Counted from the first letter of the stretch, positions 18,468 through 30,902 are shown. The stretch is DNA of 37,573 nt from Desulfonema limicola (GCA_020718925.1 DYRC01000004.1:2235-39807); one strand, 5' to 3'. Made by a program: numbers and translations. The notes: generated from the sequence alone by a model not told the origin.

Positions 18468-18613
18468 ATTTAGCCTAAAGGCTTATAAATCGCAAGTGCA
18501 ATATTTTTACAGGGGCGTAATACTTTTTATTTCACCCGGCTTGCAGTTTTTTGCCGTTTGGAGTACATATAACGCCAAGCTTAAAATAATTGAAAGGTGA
18601 AAAATCAGACATT

Positions 18614-19666
18614 ATGCCCGGCAGCACATTCGGAACATTGTTGAAAATTACAACTTGGGGAGAATCTCACGGCAAAGGCGTGGGCGTTGTGATTGACGGA
18701 TGCCCGCCCAAAATTCCCTTAACCGAAGACATGATTCAGAAAATGATGGATCGCCGAAAACCCGGCAGTTCGATTGCCAGCACTTCGCGCCGGGAAGCGG
18801 ACAAAGCGGTTATCATGTCCGGCGTATTTGACGGCATGACCACCGGTACGCCGATTATGATTATGCTGTTCAATACAGATGCGGATTCTTCCTCATACAG
18901 CCCATTTTCGGAACTTTTCAGACCCGGACACGGCGACATCAGCTATCAGGCAAAATACGGCATCCGGGATTGGCGCGGCGGGGGACGTGCGTCTGCCAGA
19001 GAAACTGCGGCGCGGGTGGCTGCCGGAGCAGTGGCAAAAGCAATTTTGGACAAAGAGAATATCAGCGTTAAAGCTTACACAATTGAACTCGGCGGAATAG
19101 AAGCTAAAAAACGCGATGTTGATCTGATAAGCAAAAATCCTTTCTGCTGCCCGGATGCTGACGCTGCTCAGGACATGGAAAATCGGGTCATAGAAGTAAG
19201 AAAACAAGGCGATTCCGTAGGCGGCATTGTGGAAATTATTGCCAAAGGCGTTCCCGCAGGCTTAGGCGATCCGGTCTTTGACAAGTTAGATGCGGATTTG
19301 GCAAAGGCATTGATGAGCATTGGCGCGGTCAAAGGCGTTGAAATCGGCGCGGGGTTTGCAGCAGCGCGGATGACAGGTTCTCAGAACAATGATCCGATTT
19401 TACCACAGGGCTTTGCAACAAACAATTCCGGCGGTATTCTGGCAGGCATATCCAATGGCGATGATATTGTGGCACGGGTGGCGGTTAAGCCGATTCCTTC
19501 GATTTCTATTGAGCAAAAAACCATTGATAAGCAAGGAAATCCGCAGACGCTTTCAGTCAAAGGGCGGCATGATGTGTCTGCTATTCCCCGAATCAACGTG
19601 GTTTGTGAGGCAATGGTCTGTCTGGTGCTTGCCGATCATCTGCTACGGCAAAAGGCGATCTTATGA
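18614..19666 (+). CDS. aroC: Chorismate synthase
   Basis: MPGSTFGTLLKITTWGESHG..GVVIDGCPP...RPGHGD...GGGRASARETA. The ATG at 18614 is preferred over the TTG at 18590. Confidence 0.95.
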   Translation: MPGSTFGTLLKITTWGESHGKGVGVVIDGCPPKIPLTEDMIQKMMDRRKPGSSIASTSRREADKAVIMSGVFDGMTTGTPIMIMLFNTDADSSSYSPFSELFRPGHGDISYQAKYGIRDWRGGGRASARETAARVAAGAVAKAILDKENISVKAYTIELGGIEAKKRDVDLISKNPFCCPDADAAQDMENRVIEVRKQGDSVGGIVEIIAKGVPAGLGDPVFDKLDADLAKALMSIGAVKGVEIGAGFAAARMTGSQNNDPILPQGFATNNSGGILAGISNGDDIVARVAVKPIPSISIEQKTIDKQGNPQTLSVKGRHDVSAIPRINVVCEAMVCLVLADHLLRQKAIL

Positions 19667-20514
19667 ACAGCCGGATATGTGTCGGAATTATCGGCGGAAA
19701 AGGCGCAATGGGTCGCTGGTTTGAGCATTTTTTTACTCAGAGCGGGCATAAGGTTCTGATTTCGGATTTGCAGACGATGTTCACCCCGAAACTTCTCGCA
19801 AGGATTTGTGATATTGTTATTATCAGCGTTCCTTTGGATATTGCGCCTGAAATTGCAAAAGCCATCGGTCCCCGAATGAGCGGGAATCAATTATTGACCG
19901 ACATCTGCTCGCTCAAAGAAGATATTCTAAATGCCATGATGAATCATACAAAAGCCGAGGTGGTCGGAACTCATCCGCTTTTCGGTCCTTTTGTCGAATC
20001 TTTTCATGGGCAGAATATGGTGATTTGTCCGGGCAGGGGTGAAAGATGGCTCAGTTGGCTCAAAGATGAATTTGAAAAAAGCGGCGCAAACATCATCAGC
20101 ACGGACGCTGCGACACATGACAGAAATATGGCTATTTTTCAAGGGCTTACGCATATACTCAGCGTCAGTATCGGCAGAATGTTTCAAAAGATAAACATGC
20201 GCCCTGCTGAAGCAATTTCTCAATCCACGCCGGTATTCAGGGTTCATACGGATCTGGTGGGGCGGCTGTTTGCTCAGGATTTGGGGCTTTATGAGCGGCT
20301 TATCGGTCAGAATAAATATGTGGGCGAAGTTCTGAATATCTTTTTGTCTGCGTTGAATGAAAGCCGGGAAAATCTGCTTTCGGGTGAAATTGGAAAAAGC
20401 AGTGAATATTTGGAACAAATCCGCTCTTTTCTCGGTGATTTCTGCCAAAAAGGGCTTGAAGAAAGCAATGAGTTTCTGAATATATTTTATTCCAAAATGA
20501 AAGGATCGGCATAA
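19663..20514 (+). CDS. tyrA: Prephenate dehydrogenase
   Basis: ATGA overlap with aroC. NAD fold ICVGIIGGKGAMGRWF; ..VVGTHPLFGP..; HDRNMAIFQGLTH. Confidence 0.85.
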   Translation: MNSRICVGIIGGKGAMGRWFEHFFTQSGHKVLISDLQTMFTPKLLARICDIVIISVPLDIAPEIAKAIGPRMSGNQLLTDICSLKEDILNAMMNHTKAEVVGTHPLFGPFVESFHGQNMVICPGRGERWLSWLKDEFEKSGANIISTDAATHDRNMAIFQGLTHILSVSIGRMFQKINMRPAEAISQSTPVFRVHTDLVGRLFAQDLGLYERLIGQNKYVGEVLNIFLSALNESRENLLSGEIGKSSEYLEQIRSFLGDFCQKGLEESNEFLNIFYSKMKGSA

Positions 20515-21770
20515 TGGATAACAAACTCAATCTTTTTGCCTTAACCTTAAAGAACTATAAAAATATAGTTGCTGATGGGATCGGATTAAATAATCTGAAT
20601 GTCATTATCGGACCAAATGGTTCGGGGAAAAGTAATTTTATCGGTGTTCTTCGGTTTTTAAAAGATTGTCTGATTTCTACACCTGATAAAAGTGGGGGGA
20701 TTACCAGTTTTGAAGAAGCTATTGAAAAGCTCGGCGGTAAAAGGATATTAGACAAAACGGTTGCATCGCATGAATCTGTTAATTTAGGTTTTATCTTCAA
20801 ACTTTCTGAAGGAAAAATTTTATTTTTTGATTTGGATATTTGGGAAGATATTATATCTGAGGAGAGTCTTTATTCACCGGGTATTGCAGGAACAGACAAG
20901 TTCTGTTTTTATAAAGTTAATATTGATTTTGATAAAGGATGCGATGTATCAGTTTATAATGATTCTACTCAAAAGGAAAGTCATATTGAAACATTATCAG
21001 ATATTCCTAATAATCAACTAATGCTAAGTATGATTCCTGAACTGTTAGAGTCAAGTAAGTTTTCCCCTGAAAATACACCTGTTTACAAAGTGCGGCGAAA
21101 AATTATTGATTCGGTATCAGGATGGCGGTTTTATAATGCCAATGATATGAATGTAACTGCTATCCGTGTTTCAGAACCGAAAATCGGTCCCGGCGATATG
21201 TTTCTTGAGCCTTCAGGAGAAAATCTGCCTTTGGTCTTGGATAATCTGATTCAGAAAGATTTTGAATTTGAAGAAAGAATCAATAATGCCATGAAGCAGA
21301 TTTTGCCTCAGACAAGAAAAATCAGACCGATACGTTTAGGGCGATTAGCGTTGACGGTGGAATGGTATTTTGACGGCATGAAAGAGCCGTTTTACTTAGA
21401 TGAAATGTCAGACGGCACGGTGAGAATGTTATGCTGGGCAGTTATTCTGCATTCTCCTATTCCGCCTTCTCTGCTGGTTATTGACGAGCCGGAAATGGGT
21501 ATTCATCCGTCATGGTTGCCGATTTTGGCGGAATGGATAAAGACCGCTTCTGAAAGAACGCAGATTATTGTCAGCACACACAGCCCTGATTTGCTGGATC
21601 ATTTTACGGACAGAACAGAAGACGTGATTTGTTTTCGCTTTGACGGAAAAAATCATTTTACACCTGAGCATTTGTCAAGGGAAAAACTTTCGGCAATGTT
21701 TAATGAAGGATGGGAGTTGGGAGATTTATATCGTGTCGGTGATCCGGGAGTCGGAGGCTGGCCATGGTAG
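20514..21770 (+). CDS. ABC/SMC-type AAA ATPase (AAA_15/AAA_21-like), candidate defence ATPase
   Basis: TAATG overlap with the tyrA stop. Walker A GPNGSGKSN; ABC-signature-like MSDGTVRML; Walker B LLVIDEPEMGIHP; H-loop VSTHSPDLL. AT-rich: 30% GC in a spot count at 20521-20580, versus 48% at 19681-19740. Confidence 0.85.
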   Translation: MDNKLNLFALTLKNYKNIVADGIGLNNLNVIIGPNGSGKSNFIGVLRFLKDCLISTPDKSGGITSFEEAIEKLGGKRILDKTVASHESVNLGFIFKLSEGKILFFDLDIWEDIISEESLYSPGIAGTDKFCFYKVNIDFDKGCDVSVYNDSTQKESHIETLSDIPNNQLMLSMIPELLESSKFSPENTPVYKVRRKIIDSVSGWRFYNANDMNVTAIRVSEPKIGPGDMFLEPSGENLPLVLDNLIQKDFEFEERINNAMKQILPQTRKIRPIRLGRLALTVEWYFDGMKEPFYLDEMSDGTVRMLCWAVILHSPIPPSLLVIDEPEMGIHPSWLPILAEWIKTASERTQIIVSTHSPDLLDHFTDRTEDVICFRFDGKNHFTPEHLSREKLSAMFNEGWELGDLYRVGDPGVGGWPW

Positions 21771-22459
21771 TTTGGGTATTTGCAGGCGGCGGAGAATCTG
21801 AGATAAAAGGGCTTATTCTGTTTTTCCGAAAAAGTTTCTCTGATTGTCAGTTTGAGCGAAAGACTCCGATCAATAATAAAAAAGCCCCTAATCCCAAAAA
21901 AGCACTCGGCAAGACCGGAAAAAGTCTTGCCGACCAGATCAGTTGGCAATTGAATAACTCTCTGAGAGATAATGAAAAATGTGATTTAATCCTTGTCATT
22001 GACGATTTGGATTGCCGAGATGTAGAGCAGCAAAACCAACTATTTCTGAAAGCGATCAACATCGTGAAAGAAGCATCTGAGATAAAACAGATTATCGCCT
22101 TTGCCGCGCCGGAATTAGAATCATGGATTGTTGCAGATTGGCAGAATACTTTTGCAAAACATATTGATTTCAGAGGATTCCATCAAGGGATGCGGCATTG
22201 GCTGAGTACAAAAAATTTTCCTTTTGATGCGCCTGAATCCTTCAGCGAATATGATTCAGACAAAGATAGCTGCAAAGAAAAACTTTCCGAACTGATTATC
22301 GAAGCGGTATCTGAAAAAGCTCAGAAAAGATATTCAAAAGCAAGTCATACGCCGTTTCTGCTTCAACAAGTCAATCCTGAAAATGTTGTGGAAAAATGCC
22401 CTTTATTCAGAGAATTGTATCTGACTTTCAATAATTTATTCAAATCAGAGAGTTTATGA
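21764..22459 (+). CDS. Toprim-like protein resembling the DUF4276/RloB/DUF4435 group
   Basis: 7-nt overlap with the ATPase gene. N-terminal VFAGGGESEIKG (Toprim-type Glu); DLILVIDDLDCRD (DxD); AAPELESWIVADW (E.W motif). The assignment rests on the motif pattern only. Confidence 0.6.
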   Translation: MVVWVFAGGGESEIKGLILFFRKSFSDCQFERKTPINNKKAPNPKKALGKTGKSLADQISWQLNNSLRDNEKCDLILVIDDLDCRDVEQQNQLFLKAINIVKEASEIKQIIAFAAPELESWIVADWQNTFAKHIDFRGFHQGMRHWLSTKNFPFDAPESFSEYDSDKDSCKEKLSELIIEAVSEKAQKRYSKASHTPFLLQQVNPENVVEKCPLFRELYLTFNNLFKSESL

Positions 22460-23530
22460 ATGCGTCTTCTTCCAAAATCAGCAATTGAAAAAGCAGGCGG
22501 TTTTCTGTCTGTTGCCTCTGTGATATACGGCTGGGGCGTAAAACTCAGAACAATGCTGTATCAGCAAGGCATTCTGAAATCCCGGCGACTTCCCTGTCTG
22601 GTTATCTCAATCGGAAACATCACCGCAGGCGGGACCGGCAAAACACCCATGACGATTTATCTGACAAAGTTATTGAAAAATCTTGGTTATTCAGTTGCTA
22701 TTGTCAGTAGGGGATACCGGGGAAAAGCTGAAAAAAACGGCGGTATTGTCAGCAATGGACATGAAATTCTGATGACATCAGAAGAAGCAGGCGATGAGCC
22801 GTTTATGATGGCGCAAATCCTGAATGATGTGCCGGTCTTGGTCGGAGGAAACCGTTTTGCAAGCGGAATGCGGGCAATACAGCAATTCAAGCCGGATATC
22901 ATCGTGCTGGATGATGCGTTTCAGCATCTTCGGCTGCATCGGGATATTAATCTTGTGCTGTTAGACAGTCGAAATCCATTCGGAAACGGACATCTGCTGC
23001 CCAAAGGCAGATTAAGAGAGCCGCTATCCGCGCTGGAGCGGGCAGATGCGTTTATTCTGACCCGAAGCGACCTAACCCCCCTGCCCCCCTTCCCTGTAGG
23101 GCAGGGGGAGACACCCATCTCCGTTTCGGAGAGGGGCTGGGGGAGAGGTTACCCCGTGTTCCGCTCCGTCCATATTCCCCGCATTCGGAAAAATGAGATA
23201 AACAACCGCCGGGTATTTGCGTTTTCCGGCATTGCGGATAATCAGGATTTTTTACAGACTGTCAGGACATTGGGCGGTGAAATTGTCGGTTTCAAAGGAT
23301 TTGCCGATCATTATCCGTATTCTCTGCGTGATCTTGAGGATATTGCTGCGTATGCAAAGAATGCTCAGGCAGAAATGCTGGTTACAACAGAAAAAGATCA
23401 TGCGCGGATCGCTGATAATATCCGCGCATTACAGCCTGATCTTGCGGTCATCGGAATTGATATTTCTTTCAAAAGCGATGCACCGGAATTTGAAGCGTTT
23501 ATTCAACGCCGCATAGCGCAATACATTTAA
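22460..23530 (+). CDS. lpxK: Tetraacyldisaccharide 4'-kinase
   Basis: Starts at the nucleotide after the upstream stop. P-loop ISIGNITAGGTGKTP; VSRGY; DDAFQH; C-terminal FADHYPY..TTEKD. Contains a repeat-derived in-frame insert at 23070-23155. Confidence 0.9.
   Translation: MRLLPKSAIEKAGGFLSVASVIYGWGVKLRTMLYQQGILKSRRLPCLVISIGNITAGGTGKTPMTIYLTKLLKNLGYSVAIVSRGYRGKAEKNGGIVSNGHEILMTSEEAGDEPFMMAQILNDVPVLVGGNRFASGMRAIQQFKPDIIVLDDAFQHLRLHRDINLVLLDSRNPFGNGHLLPKGRLREPLSALERADAFILTRSDLTPLPPFPVGQGETPISVSERGWGRGYPVFRSVHIPRIRKNEINNRRVFAFSGIADNQDFLQTVRTLGGEIVGFKGFADHYPYSLRDLEDIAAYAKNAQAEMLVTTEKDHARIADNIRALQPDLAVIGIDISFKSDAPEFEAFIQRRIAQYI
23070..23155 (-). repeat. C/G-rich double-hairpin repeat, copy 3 (variant B), in frame inside lpxK
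   Basis: CCTAACCCCCCTGCCCCCCTTCCCTGTAGGGCAGGGGGAG..CTCCGTTTCGGAGAGGGGCTGGGGGAGAGGTTACCCC aligns with the reverse complement of 24473-24563. It is translated as LTPLPPFPVGQGETPISVSERGWGRGYP. Confidence 0.75.
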
Positions 23531-23918: not shown

Positions 23919-24458
23919 TTATTCACCCAACAGGTTTTTAACCTGCATCAGACATTCTTTTGCGCCGGTTTTTTCCAGCGCGGCTTTGACGGATCGGAAA
24001 CATTCCCGGATAATGGCGGTTTTGGGCTTTGAAGAAAACAGTTGGGCGTCAACGGTTCTGATGTCAGCAACCAGTTCATTGAGCGTTTCAAAATTCAAGC
24101 CCGATTTTCCGATCTCAGCTTTCAAGCCGTTGATGACATTTTCCACCGCCTTGTGCGCCGCGTCATCCAAGATGAGCGCGTTGCCTAAACCTACCGCCGC
24201 CGCCGTCCCGCCGCTTGCGCCCATCTGCCGGGCTTTTTCAATGCCGTCATTGGTAATGGCAATGCCGCCGGAAAGTGTGCGGATTTCTATGAGATTCCAC
24301 CCCATGAGTTCTTCCGCTATATGTTTGGCATCCTGCTTTTCCATGCCCAAAGCCGCGCCGATGTCATACATGGACGCTTTTGCCGAAGTTTTGCCGTCTG
24401 TCTGTCTGAATAATTCCAAAAGGAAATTTTTTCCAGCCTCGTCAATCTGATCTGTCAT
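23919..24458 (-). CDS. Hypothetical protein with N-terminal winged-helix-like region (179 aa)
   Basis: Intact ORF downstream of mltG, separated from it only by repeat copy 4. No catalytic motif recognised. Confidence 0.55.
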   Translation of the reverse strand: MTDQIDEAGKNFLLELFRQTDGKTSAKASMYDIGAALGMEKQDAKHIAEELMGWNLIEIRTLSGGIAITNDGIEKARQMGASGGTAAAVGLGNALILDDAAHKAVENVINGLKAEIGKSGLNFETLNELVADIRTVDAQLFSSKPKTAIIRECFRSVKAALEKTGAKECLMQVKNLLGE

Positions 24459-29163: not shown

Positions 29164-29574
29164 TTACCTGCTTTTCAAGTCTATCCATATCGAAAGGACA
29201 GACTTCAGATTCTTAAAATGCGGATCGGTTGAAACAAATCGCTCACAAGCATGATGTTTTGCAATCGCTAAATGAACCGAATCCATTGCCTTCAAATTCT
29301 CAGTCTGAGAAAATTTTAAAGCATCTTTGAAAACATTAGGAAAACTTTTCAGAATTTTGGTTTGTTCAAACAACCTGTCATAAATTCTGACCAAGCGTTC
29401 ATTATTATCTTTGTGAGGTTTTGACAATACTTCAAGCACCACGGCATCGGAAGCACACAATAGCCATCCTGCATTCATAAGTTCCTGAAGACAGATATTA
29501 ACGTTTTTACGATAGTTTGGCAATCCCTCAATACGTGCTATCCAAACAGAAGAGTCAACATAAGCTAATTTCAT
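29164..29574 (-). CDS. vapC: PIN-domain toxin VapC
   Basis: MKLAYVDSSVWI..(Asp)...LEV...MDSVHLAIA...FVSTD. ATGA overlap with the upstream antitoxin gene. Confidence 0.8.
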   Translation of the reverse strand: MKLAYVDSSVWIARIEGLPNYRKNVNICLQELMNAGWLLCASDAVVLEVLSKPHKDNNERLVRIYDRLFEQTKILKSFPNVFKDALKFSQTENLKAMDSVHLAIAKHHACERFVSTDPHFKNLKSVLSIWIDLKSR

Positions 29575-30241: not shown

Positions 30242-30326
30242 AGTTCTGCCTGATTGAAAAATTCTTGTATAAAAGATTATTCCATGTTATCAGAAATAGT
30301 TAAAATTGTCTATAAATAGAAAGAGT

Positions 30327-30902
30327 ATGAGCATGTCTGTCGCGCCCAAAATTTATTTTACGTCTGAAGAATATTTAGCTATTGAACGCATGGCTGACTA
30401 TAAGAGCGAATATTTCAACGGTGAAATGTTTGCTATGGCAGGAGCGAGTCCGACCCATGCGCTGATTGTAACGAATGTTGTTTCCGAACTCAGAACACAG
30501 TTGAAAAAACGCCCATGCACCGTATATTCGACAGATTTAAGGCTCAGAGTCAGCCCGACAGGTCTTTATACCTATCCTGATGTGGCGGTTGTATGCGGAG
30601 AGCCTGAATACGACGATAAATATGAAGATACGCTCCTCAATCCGACGCTCATTATCGAAGTGCTTTCCGAATCCACCGAAAGCTATGACAGAGGCGCGAA
30701 ATTCAAACAATATCAAAGCGTAAAATCTGTAAAAGAATATGTGCTGATTGCTCAGAACACACCGCGCATAGAGCGTTTTACCCGGCAGAACCGCAGCCGG
30801 TGGTCGCCTTTGATGGCGAGTCATATCGGAGATGAAATTGAACTGAGTTCTGTCAATTGCGTTTTATCTCTGGCAGAGGTGTATGATAAGGTAAGGTTTT
30901 AA
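30327..30902 (+). CDS. Uma2 family (DUF820) restriction-endonuclease-like protein
   Basis: EEYLAIERMADYKSEYFNGEMFAMAG.., YTYPDVAVVCG, PTLIIEVLSESTESYDRGAKFKQY. Confidence 0.85.
   Translation: MSMSVAPKIYFTSEEYLAIERMADYKSEYFNGEMFAMAGASPTHALIVTNVVSELRTQLKKRPCTVYSTDLRLRVSPTGLYTYPDVAVVCGEPEYDDKYEDTLLNPTLIIEVLSESTESYDRGAKFKQYQSVKSVKEYVLIAQNTPRIERFTRQNRSRWSPLMASHIGDEIELSSVNCVLSLAEVYDKVRF

Follow-up and report, generated by a model that had tools for sequence, protein, structure and literature searches.

HEC-01 (the PADLOC Hma-embedded candidate 01) has been described as an ABC ATPase paired with a TOPRIM protein; its B component was reported to have a TOPRIM-like structure with a conserved metal site, and the pair gave no protection when tested in Escherichia coli (Payne et al., 10.1101/2024.01.29.577857). 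A HEC-01 representative from a cold seep protected E. coli B from at least one of the phages T4, T5, and T7 (PMC12881386). MADS3-4 and AbiL have been added to the list of ABC ATPase plus TOPRIM systems, and the mechanism of AriA/AriB, the two proteins of PARIS, is established. DUF4276 and RloB have been named as new Toprim members (PMC12065111), and Mad4 of MADS as well as some Menshen NsnC domains have been described as DUF4276 or its homologues (PMC12065111, PMC11464382). Here, a stretch of 37,573 nucleotides (nt) deposited under Desulfonema limicola (GCA_020718925.1 DYRC01000004.1:2235-39807; in the following "the window") was analyzed, in which a gene for an ABC-type ATPase and a gene for a DUF4276 protein are located between tyrA and lpxK (positions 20514-22459, + strand). 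An earlier note, made from the DNA sequence without database searches, had regarded these two genes as a horizontally acquired immunity module whose Toprim-like partner protein belongs to a family of no demonstrated function. The gene pair is genuine and was described correctly, and it is probably a divergent member of the two-gene module of ABC ATPase and DUF4276 (Toprim-like) protein listed by PADLOC as the candidate anti-phage system HEC-01, that is, a divergent addition to a known candidate defence family and not a new kind of system. The supposed lack of precedent for the partner family did not hold, because the combination of an ABC ATPase with DUF4276 already constitutes HEC-01 and DUF4276 also occurs in Mad4 and in some Menshen NsnC proteins. 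New are the age of the pair at its site, a hypervariable insert in the ATPase, a derived zero spacer, and a 7-nt gene overlap with an embedded ribosome-binding site (RBS) that is conserved as far as the cyanobacteria.

The ATPase and its DUF4276 partner

The first gene (20514-21770, + strand) encodes a protein of 418 amino acids of the ABC/SMC-head type. In Pfam it reached 133.5 bits with AAA_21 (gathering threshold, GA, 27; E = 2e-38), 57.2 bits with AAA_15, and 49.8 bits with SMC_N. Five HEC-01A models of PADLOC matched it with E values of 1e-50 to 3e-38; the best of them was PDLC04175 (1e-50), and PDLC04178 (4e-49) spanned residues 5-408. Its translation contains all three motifs listed in the earlier note, namely Walker A (GPNGSGKSN, 20610-20636, residue 33), Walker B (LLVIDEPE, 21471, residue 320), and the H-loop (STHSP, 21573, residue 354), and in addition an ABC signature-like MSDGT (21405, residue 298), so that the stretch from 21405 to 21587 (+ strand) holds the latter three elements. 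Residues G33, N35, G38, K39, S40, and N41 of Walker A were invariant in 38 homologues, as were S299, D300, G301, D324, E325, P326, E327, and H356. The AlphaFold2 (AF2) model of the ATPase had a mean confidence (pLDDT) of 86.8, lacked a coiled coil, and showed a beta-rich insert at residues 89-162. With Foldseek it matched PtuA (of Septu and retron systems), SMC/cohesin heads, and the Ts (Thermus) OLD protein (E = 8e-14 to 4e-11, template modelling score about 0.45-0.54). Profiles and fold matches thus agree with the identification of the first gene product as an ABC/SMC-type ATPase. The C-terminal tail of the protein, GDLYRVG[DN]PxxGGWPW-stop, is conserved in cyanobacterial and other homologues of approximately 55% identity.

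The second gene (21764-22459, + strand, stop codon TGA at 22457-22459) encodes a HEC-01B-like protein of 231 amino acids. The Pfam search proposed in the earlier note assigned it to DUF4276 (PF14103) with 35.2 bits against a GA of 30.2, and the same family was matched by all 47 close homologues and by 43 of the 44 members of a wider family set; all 47 close homologues also matched HEC-01B. For the protein of the window itself, eight HEC-01B models gave weak and partial matches (best E = 4.5e-6 over 54 residues; about 50-80 residues in all). Together with the HEC-01A match of the ATPase, this places the pair in the class of ABC-ATPase plus Toprim-like systems to which it had been ascribed. The partner had no NCBIfam match, and an identity as KAP_NTPase was rejected (19.7 bits, under the GA of 20). 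An exhaustive profile search among 1.84 billion representative sequences recovered 287 clusters at 50% identity for the branch to which the partner belongs; judged by these sequence comparisons, its subfamily forms a small branch of its own within the DUF4276 family.

All partner motifs named in the earlier note are present (GGGESE at residue 8, VIDDLDCRD at residue 78, PELESW at residue 116), and a comparison of 44 sequences with identities as low as 26% showed no variation at E13, D80, D81, D83, E117, E119, D125, E158, K173, S175, and K192. The AF2 model of the partner (pLDDT 92) has a core of the order beta-alpha-beta-alpha-beta-alpha-beta, a succession of secondary structures that fits a Toprim fold. 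Glu13 of GGGESE (codon at 21800-21802, + strand) follows strand 1 (residues 2-7), the D80-D81-L82-D83 segment (22001-22012, + strand) follows strand 3 (residues 75-81), and the P116-E117-L118-E119 segment (22109-22120, + strand) follows strand 4 (residues 108-114). Acidic residues directly after strands 1, 3, and 4 correspond to the placement of the Toprim Glu and DxD motifs, which PMC12065111 describes for DUF4276 as well, and the assignment of the partner to Toprim rests on this placement and on the published analyses cited above. A weak RloB signal occurred in 2 of the 47 close homologues and in 5 of the 44 family members; the partner of the window itself matched neither RloB nor Toprim_Old. 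A Zn or Fe-S site was also considered and rejected, as the four cysteines that are invariant among close homologues are only partly kept in the wider family (C84 and C212 in at least 90%).

Distribution, base composition, and selection

The host belongs to an uncultured lineage of the Desulfobacterales, with best lpxK identities of 40-66% to 80 species in GTDB. At none of these 80 Desulfobacterales lpxK loci was tyrA, aroC, or the pair found nearby; at the ten best-matching loci lpxK often follows waaA/kdtA-like and lptF/G-like open reading frames (ORFs), with names given here solely from the size and the N-terminal sequence of the ORFs. One relative, whose tyrA is 76% identical, has a convergent ABC-2 gene following tyrA and lacks the pair, the contig of a second relative (73% tyrA identity) stops 145 nt past tyrA, and the exact pre-insertion site was not recovered among these 80 lpxK loci and two tyrA relatives. 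All contigs of the same species (>98% nucleotide identity) contain the pair. It also occurs in the divergent lineages represented by contigs L103 (tyrA 93% amino acid identity), L099 (88%), L106 (ATPase 73%, partner 91%), and L104 (tyrA 87%, ATPase 84%, partner 90.5%). The full order (aroC-)tyrA-ATPase-partner-lpxK-ridA was seen in L104 and L106, and the sequences of L099 and L103 end soon after the start of the ATPase gene. At least five genus-level lineages thus have the pair at this one site. Because divergent lineages share it and the relative with the 76% identical tyrA lacks the pair, the acquisition of the pair predates the diversification of the genus-level clade (synonymous divergence, dS, of approximately 0.25-0.4), and its inheritance has been vertical since then. 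The comparison of the tyrA-lpxK interval suggested in the earlier note hence gave a twofold answer, presence across the clade and absence both at the 80 lpxK loci and after the 76% tyrA. The idea of horizontal acquisition retains the atypical composition and the absence from this position in distant relatives in its favour, but a fresh insertion is not what was found, as the pair is fixed across genus-level lineages.

In all homologous loci examined the partner gene adjoins an ATPase gene, and outside the clade the cassette stands alone among housekeeping or metabolic genes. In one such locus (L094, 4662-13661) it lies in a co-directional operon of the sugar/inositol catabolic type (KduI, PfkB, the pair, AP_endonuc_2, adh_short, GFO_IDH, TPP_enzyme), with only 12 nt separating it from the following gene, so that placement within an operon is found again in an unrelated host. 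Named hosts of the subfamily include cyanobacteria (Nostocales, Microcoleus, Gloeothece), Desulfonema magnum, D. ishimotonii, and Candidatus Parabeggiatoa, most of which are filamentous bacteria. Genes may have been shared among these groups, or the list may simply be a product of sampling.

The spot values of about 30% and 48% GC given in the earlier note were reproduced exactly (0.30 for 20521-20580 and 0.483 for 19681-19740 in tyrA), and the difference extends to the whole pair, which has a GC content of 0.384 as compared to 0.451 and 0.449 in the two flanking stretches of 10 kb. GC at third codon positions (GC3) is 0.337 and 0.358 in the two genes versus 0.483 +/- 0.053 in the 32 other ORFs of the window, approximately 2.4-2.8 standard deviations low. 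The pair is 5-11 GC points under its flanks in six of six hosts (the window, L090, L093, L094, L104, and L106), with extremes of 31% in a host of 36% and 51% in a host of 62%. The most AT-rich stretch of the interval is the variable insert of the ATPase (GC about 0.28-0.32).

This insert, a hypervariable and beta-rich segment comprising codons 76-175 (20739-21038, + strand; GC 0.29; model strands spanning residues 89-162), shows 22-55% identity among relatives, as opposed to 87-100% in every 40-residue block of residues 200-418. Ratios of nonsynonymous to synonymous substitution (dN/dS), calculated against L104 and L106, respectively, were 0.59 and 0.90 for codons 76-175, which also contain insertions and deletions, 0.13 and 0.16 for codons 176-418, and 0.18 and 0.19 for the partner, compared to 0.17 for lpxK. 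The pair is under purifying selection. In the ATPase gene of L106 the first 175 codons have a dS of 0.56-0.63 versus 0.24 in the remainder, which suggests that this allele was replaced by recombination and that the alleles are mosaics and not the product of in-place divergence alone. A fast-evolving ATPase insert has been proposed in the literature on ABC-ATPase defence to set sensor specificity (10.1101/2024.01.29.577857), and the combination of a conserved effector with a fast-evolving insert fits this proposal. Within the species (>99% nucleotide identity; L082, L083, L084-L087, and L096) 0-2 differences were counted over the 1946 nt of the pair, as opposed to 6 in tyrA and 9 over the first 342 nt of lpxK, so that polymorphism is here higher in the flanks than in the pair. 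One JGI contig (L098, position ~1203, corresponding to ~20700 of the window) has an extra T after a run of six G that splits the ATPase ORF and represents either an error in the reads or a genuine null allele of the population. An apparent truncation of the ATPase in the metagenome-assembled genome (MAG) GCA_020720265.1 was dismissed, as the break is a run of N in a scaffold gap.

Junctions and neighbouring genes

The pair is part of a tightly packed co-directional block that is headed by aroC (chorismate synthase, 18590-19666, + strand; Pfam Chorismate_synt, E = 5e-138), which overlaps by 4 nt with tyrA (prephenate dehydrogenase, 19663-20514, + strand; Pfam PDH_N and PDH_C). As the earlier note had stated, the tyrA stop codon TAA (20512-20514) shares a base with the ATG of the ATPase gene (20514-20516), giving TAATG and a 1-nt overlap; a Shine-Dalgarno-like AAAGGA (20500-20505, + strand) lies 8 nt upstream of this ATG within the tyrA coding sequence. 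The 7-nt overlap of the two genes of the pair was likewise verified (ATGGTAG; ATPase to 21770, partner from 21764). At this coupling junction (21753-21770, + strand) the Gly-Gly codons of the GGWPW tail form a GGAGG (21753-21757), with a distance of 6 nt to the ATG of the partner (21764). Both the 7-nt overlap and the Shine-Dalgarno-like purine run 6 nt before the partner start are conserved from the Desulfobacterales to the cyanobacteria; four of the five junction loci compared have GGAGG and L094 has GGGGG, and in L090, L093, and L094 the partner starts with GTG. Finally, lpxK (tetraacyldisaccharide 4'-kinase, 22460-23530, + strand; Pfam LpxK, E = 3.6e-92) does begin at the nucleotide after the partner stop (TGA to 22459, ATG at 22460), and no earlier start is possible because of the in-frame stop codon directly upstream. 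Since the spacer is zero or less in 11 of the window's 29 pairs of same-strand neighbours, the tight packing is statistically unremarkable by itself.

A scan of the window revealed no terminator-like site on the + strand between aroC-tyrA, the pair, and lpxK, and promoter-like matches across this region did not exceed the expectation from shuffled sequence. As no terminator-like site separates the blocks on the + strand, co-transcription from aroC to lpxK is plausible, and it is a reasonable inference from the sequence that the pair is co-transcribed from aroC and that lpxK depends on transcription through the pair. Inside the partner gene (21906-21933) lies a perfect inverted repeat of 10 bp that is terminator-like for the minus strand. 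It was rejected as a functional element, for synonymous changes abolish it in L104 and L106 and it is probably due to chance.

The history of the left junction could be traced by comparison with the related contigs. In L104 tyrA and the ATPase gene are separated by a spacer of 147 nt that contains a terminator-like hairpin, CCCGGAAATGAATTTCCGGG. Because this spacer is homologous to the region downstream of tyrA in the outgroup L102 (GCA_012031825.1), it represents ancestral host sequence. Its last bases, AAAATGAAAGGAGCGGCATAATG, match AAAATGAAAGGATCGGCATAATG of the window, and L104 keeps AAAGGAG at the 3' end of the non-coding spacer. The window, L099, and L103 lack approximately 125 nt, and their tyrA frame runs on into the former ATPase leader, from which its last six residues (KMKGSA before the stop, about 20494-20511) are derived. 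The same deletion left a spacer of 12 nt in L106, where tyrA ends in FYSKL. Because the sister lineage L104 retains the ancestral spacer, the left junction owes its seamlessness to a secondary deletion by which the hairpins were lost; it is not an insertion footprint. The spacerless splice between tyrA and lpxK is hence exact as far as the zero spacers are concerned, but on the left side it is derived from a later deletion. The right junction (TGA directly followed by ATG) is identical in the window, L104, and L106.

The genes around the pair differ to some extent among the lineages. Directly upstream of aroC, L104 has a gene pair (1049-1710) with Pfam matches to DUF4258 and, weakly, to the MqsA antitoxin, possibly a toxin-antitoxin (TA) system, at the place taken in the window by the BrkB-family gene, so that synteny ends immediately to the left of the operon. 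An internal segment of lpxK is variable among lineages, the gene of the window (22460-23530) coding for 14 residues more (~205-237) than that of L104 (5736-6764). An ORF of 179 amino acids without Pfam match (23919-24458, - strand) is kept between ridA and mltG in all related contigs. The window's only other very low GC3 value (0.343) was found in a PIN-domain gene, which probably encodes a VapC-type toxin and is located close to a gene of the Uma2 endonuclease family (positions of the two genes, 29164-29574 and 30306-30902).

Proposed mechanism, alternatives, and comparison with known systems

The best-supported reading of the pair is an abortive-infection module similar to PARIS and OLD. AriA/AriB of PARIS is the best mechanistic template, with an ATPase scaffold that senses a trigger and frees a nuclease; a 2026 preprint ("OLD sentinel: an abortive tRNase...") reports the same mechanism for P2 OLD. 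The module was acquired horizontally by an ancestor of this genus-level clade of the Desulfobacterales, at a site downstream of aroC-tyrA that directly precedes lpxK, and was inherited vertically afterwards under purifying selection. The deletion of ~125 nt then removed the hairpin-bearing spacer and fused the tyrA frame into the ATPase leader, with the pair now probably being co-transcribed with aroC-tyrA and lpxK probably being expressed through the pair. Translational coupling could fix the proportion of ATPase to partner, and the two proteins may form a complex in which, as in AriA/AriB and P2 OLD, the ATPase keeps the partner nuclease inactive. A phage-derived trigger would be sensed by the ATPase via its hypervariable beta-rich insert in an ATP-dependent manner and would release or activate the DUF4276 protein. 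The partner, a putative nuclease, would cut nucleic acid with its acidic metal site (E13, D80/D81/D83, E117/E119), and this cutting would abort the infection. Following the precedent of AriB and OLD the substrate may be tRNA, with DNA also being conceivable. What the sequence data show are the family membership, the motifs, the coupling, the pattern of selection, and the history of the locus.

A number of results weigh against this anti-phage reading. The HEC-01 representative tested by Payne et al. did not confer defence, and the HEC-01B matches of the partner are weak and partial. Foldseek searches with the partner model against PDB and BFVD returned no Toprim protein and nothing at E ≤ 1e-3, the hits being generic Rossmann-like folds (best E = 0.011), and two family profiles had no relevant match among PDB sequences (hmmsearch). 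Profiles A1 and A7 aligned to P2 Old with a probability of 0.2-0.3% in hhalign, a result that does not exclude Toprim because a single sequence is a weak target. From the Toprim-style partner of the earlier note thus remains the Glu/DxD arrangement, invariant and properly placed after the strands, whereas neither profiles nor Foldseek linked the protein to classical Toprim domains. Moreover, there are neither defence islands nor mobile-element genes (integrase, transposase) near the pair, partner homologues were absent from the IMG/VR viral contigs, PLSDB plasmids, and GenBank phages searched, and long vertical retention in a housekeeping operon would also be expected of a non-defence cellular function.

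The last three observations would also fit a domesticated cellular role, for example RecF/OLD-like processing of damaged nucleic acids or DNA/RNA maintenance, in a module that is no longer or never was immune. This would also be in line with the single chromosomal site across genus-level divergence, dN/dS values as low as that of lpxK, and the homologous cassettes among metabolic genes. Nevertheless we consider it unlikely, given the patchy distribution with absence of the pair at this locus in most Desulfobacterales, the higher AT content of the pair than of the host in six of six genomes, nearest profile families that are all defence-associated, and a hypervariable ATPase segment (dN/dS 0.6-0.9) with allele mosaicism, features that typify immune sensors rather than repair enzymes. 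The hypervariable region is also hard to account for if the pair is a selfish, TA-like addiction module, in which the ATPase would restrain a DUF4276 toxin, loss would be harmful, and polar coupling to the essential lpxK would reinforce retention. AriB-type Toprim effectors alone are, furthermore, only mildly toxic and require activation, and we regard this explanation as improbable, even though the two-gene coupling is strict and conserved, the Pfam text for AAA_21 reads "putative AbiEii toxin, Type IV TA system," outside the partner gene there is no space for a separate lpxK promoter or RBS, and the cassette is a stand-alone unit in unrelated genomic contexts. Addiction and defence are not mutually exclusive; abortive-infection systems are often TA-like.

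That the genes are inactive, decaying relics of an old insertion might be concluded from the contig L098, whose ATPase frame is broken by the 1-nt insertion after the G6 run, and from the MAG with an apparently truncated ATPase. However, the former is a frameshift in a homopolymer of an old assembly and the latter a run of N, both ORFs are intact in all other lineages, and the catalytic motifs are kept. The dN/dS values of 0.13-0.19 essentially exclude this explanation, which has a very remote chance of being correct. A more far-reaching version of the defence hypothesis holds that the DUF4276 branch, a small clade (287 clusters) for which neither sequence comparison nor Foldseek showed a link to a solved nuclease and whose named hosts are for the most part filamentous cyanobacteria, Desulfonema and relatives, and Candidatus Parabeggiatoa, works by a mechanism different from those of HEC-01, PARIS, and MADS, that its retention is enforced by entrenchment in an essential operon, and that ATPase inserts swapped by recombination retune its specificity. 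We give this little credence. If it were true, the pair would have depended on aroC-tyrA transcription since the spacer deletion, and lpxK would depend on transcription, and probably on termination-reinitiation, through a nuclease gene. The host could then not easily lose the module, because the pair and lpxK would be transcriptionally entrenched.

Membership in HEC-01 being the preferred reading, the locus supplies a natural history for a poorly characterized candidate defence family, with a single acquisition and long retention under purifying selection, a fast-evolving segment as presumed sensor insert, and progressive welding of the module into an essential-gene operon. Concrete residues and a defined variable segment are now at hand for HEC-01-type systems. 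The locus further illustrates that defence-like cassettes can sit outside defence islands and that island-based discovery can therefore miss them.

Among the known systems, OLD, GajA of Gabija, and AbiL/RloAB share with the pair the combination of an ABC ATPase with a Toprim-type nuclease; Ts OLD is a fold match of the window ATPase and AbiLi matches it with E = 3.7e-26. OLD and GajA are single polypeptides, however, as opposed to the two ORFs in the window, and no GajB helicase adjoins them, for which reasons the pair is neither OLD nor Gabija. MADS resembles it in combining an AAA_15/21 ABC ATPase with a DUF4276-type protein, and the PADLOC model mad3 matches the ATPase with 1.5e-21. In contrast, the NCBIfam MAD3 model, with a cutoff of 420 bits, scores 97.8, Mad4 was not matched by the partner, and no methyltransferase, restriction-modification, or defence component was detected among the Pfam-annotated genes within ~10 kb of the pair, whose neighbourhood consists of aroC, tyrA, lpxK, ridA, and mltG. 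The low MAD3 score and the lack of a methyltransferase in this range argue that the pair is not MADS. PARIS, too, consists of an ABC ATPase and a small nuclease with an acidic site, and its AriA model matches the C-terminal part of the window ATPase with 3e-36. The match to the solved AriA (E = 8e-6 over 70 residues) is limited to the ABC motifs, though, and AriB belongs to DUF4435 while the partner belongs to DUF4276 and matched neither DUF4435 nor AriB (Pfam at E ≤ 10, PADLOC at E ≤ 1). Because of the missing DUF4435 match, the pair is not PARIS. PARIS is, moreover, often carried by phage satellites, and the subfamily of the window was not found on viral or plasmid records. From HEC-01 the pair differs in its location outside an Hma system and outside defence islands, its fixation in a housekeeping operon, and the weak matches of the partner, but it has in common with HEC-01 the arrangement of two genes on the same strand with the ATPase first and the conserved acidic residues of the metal site.

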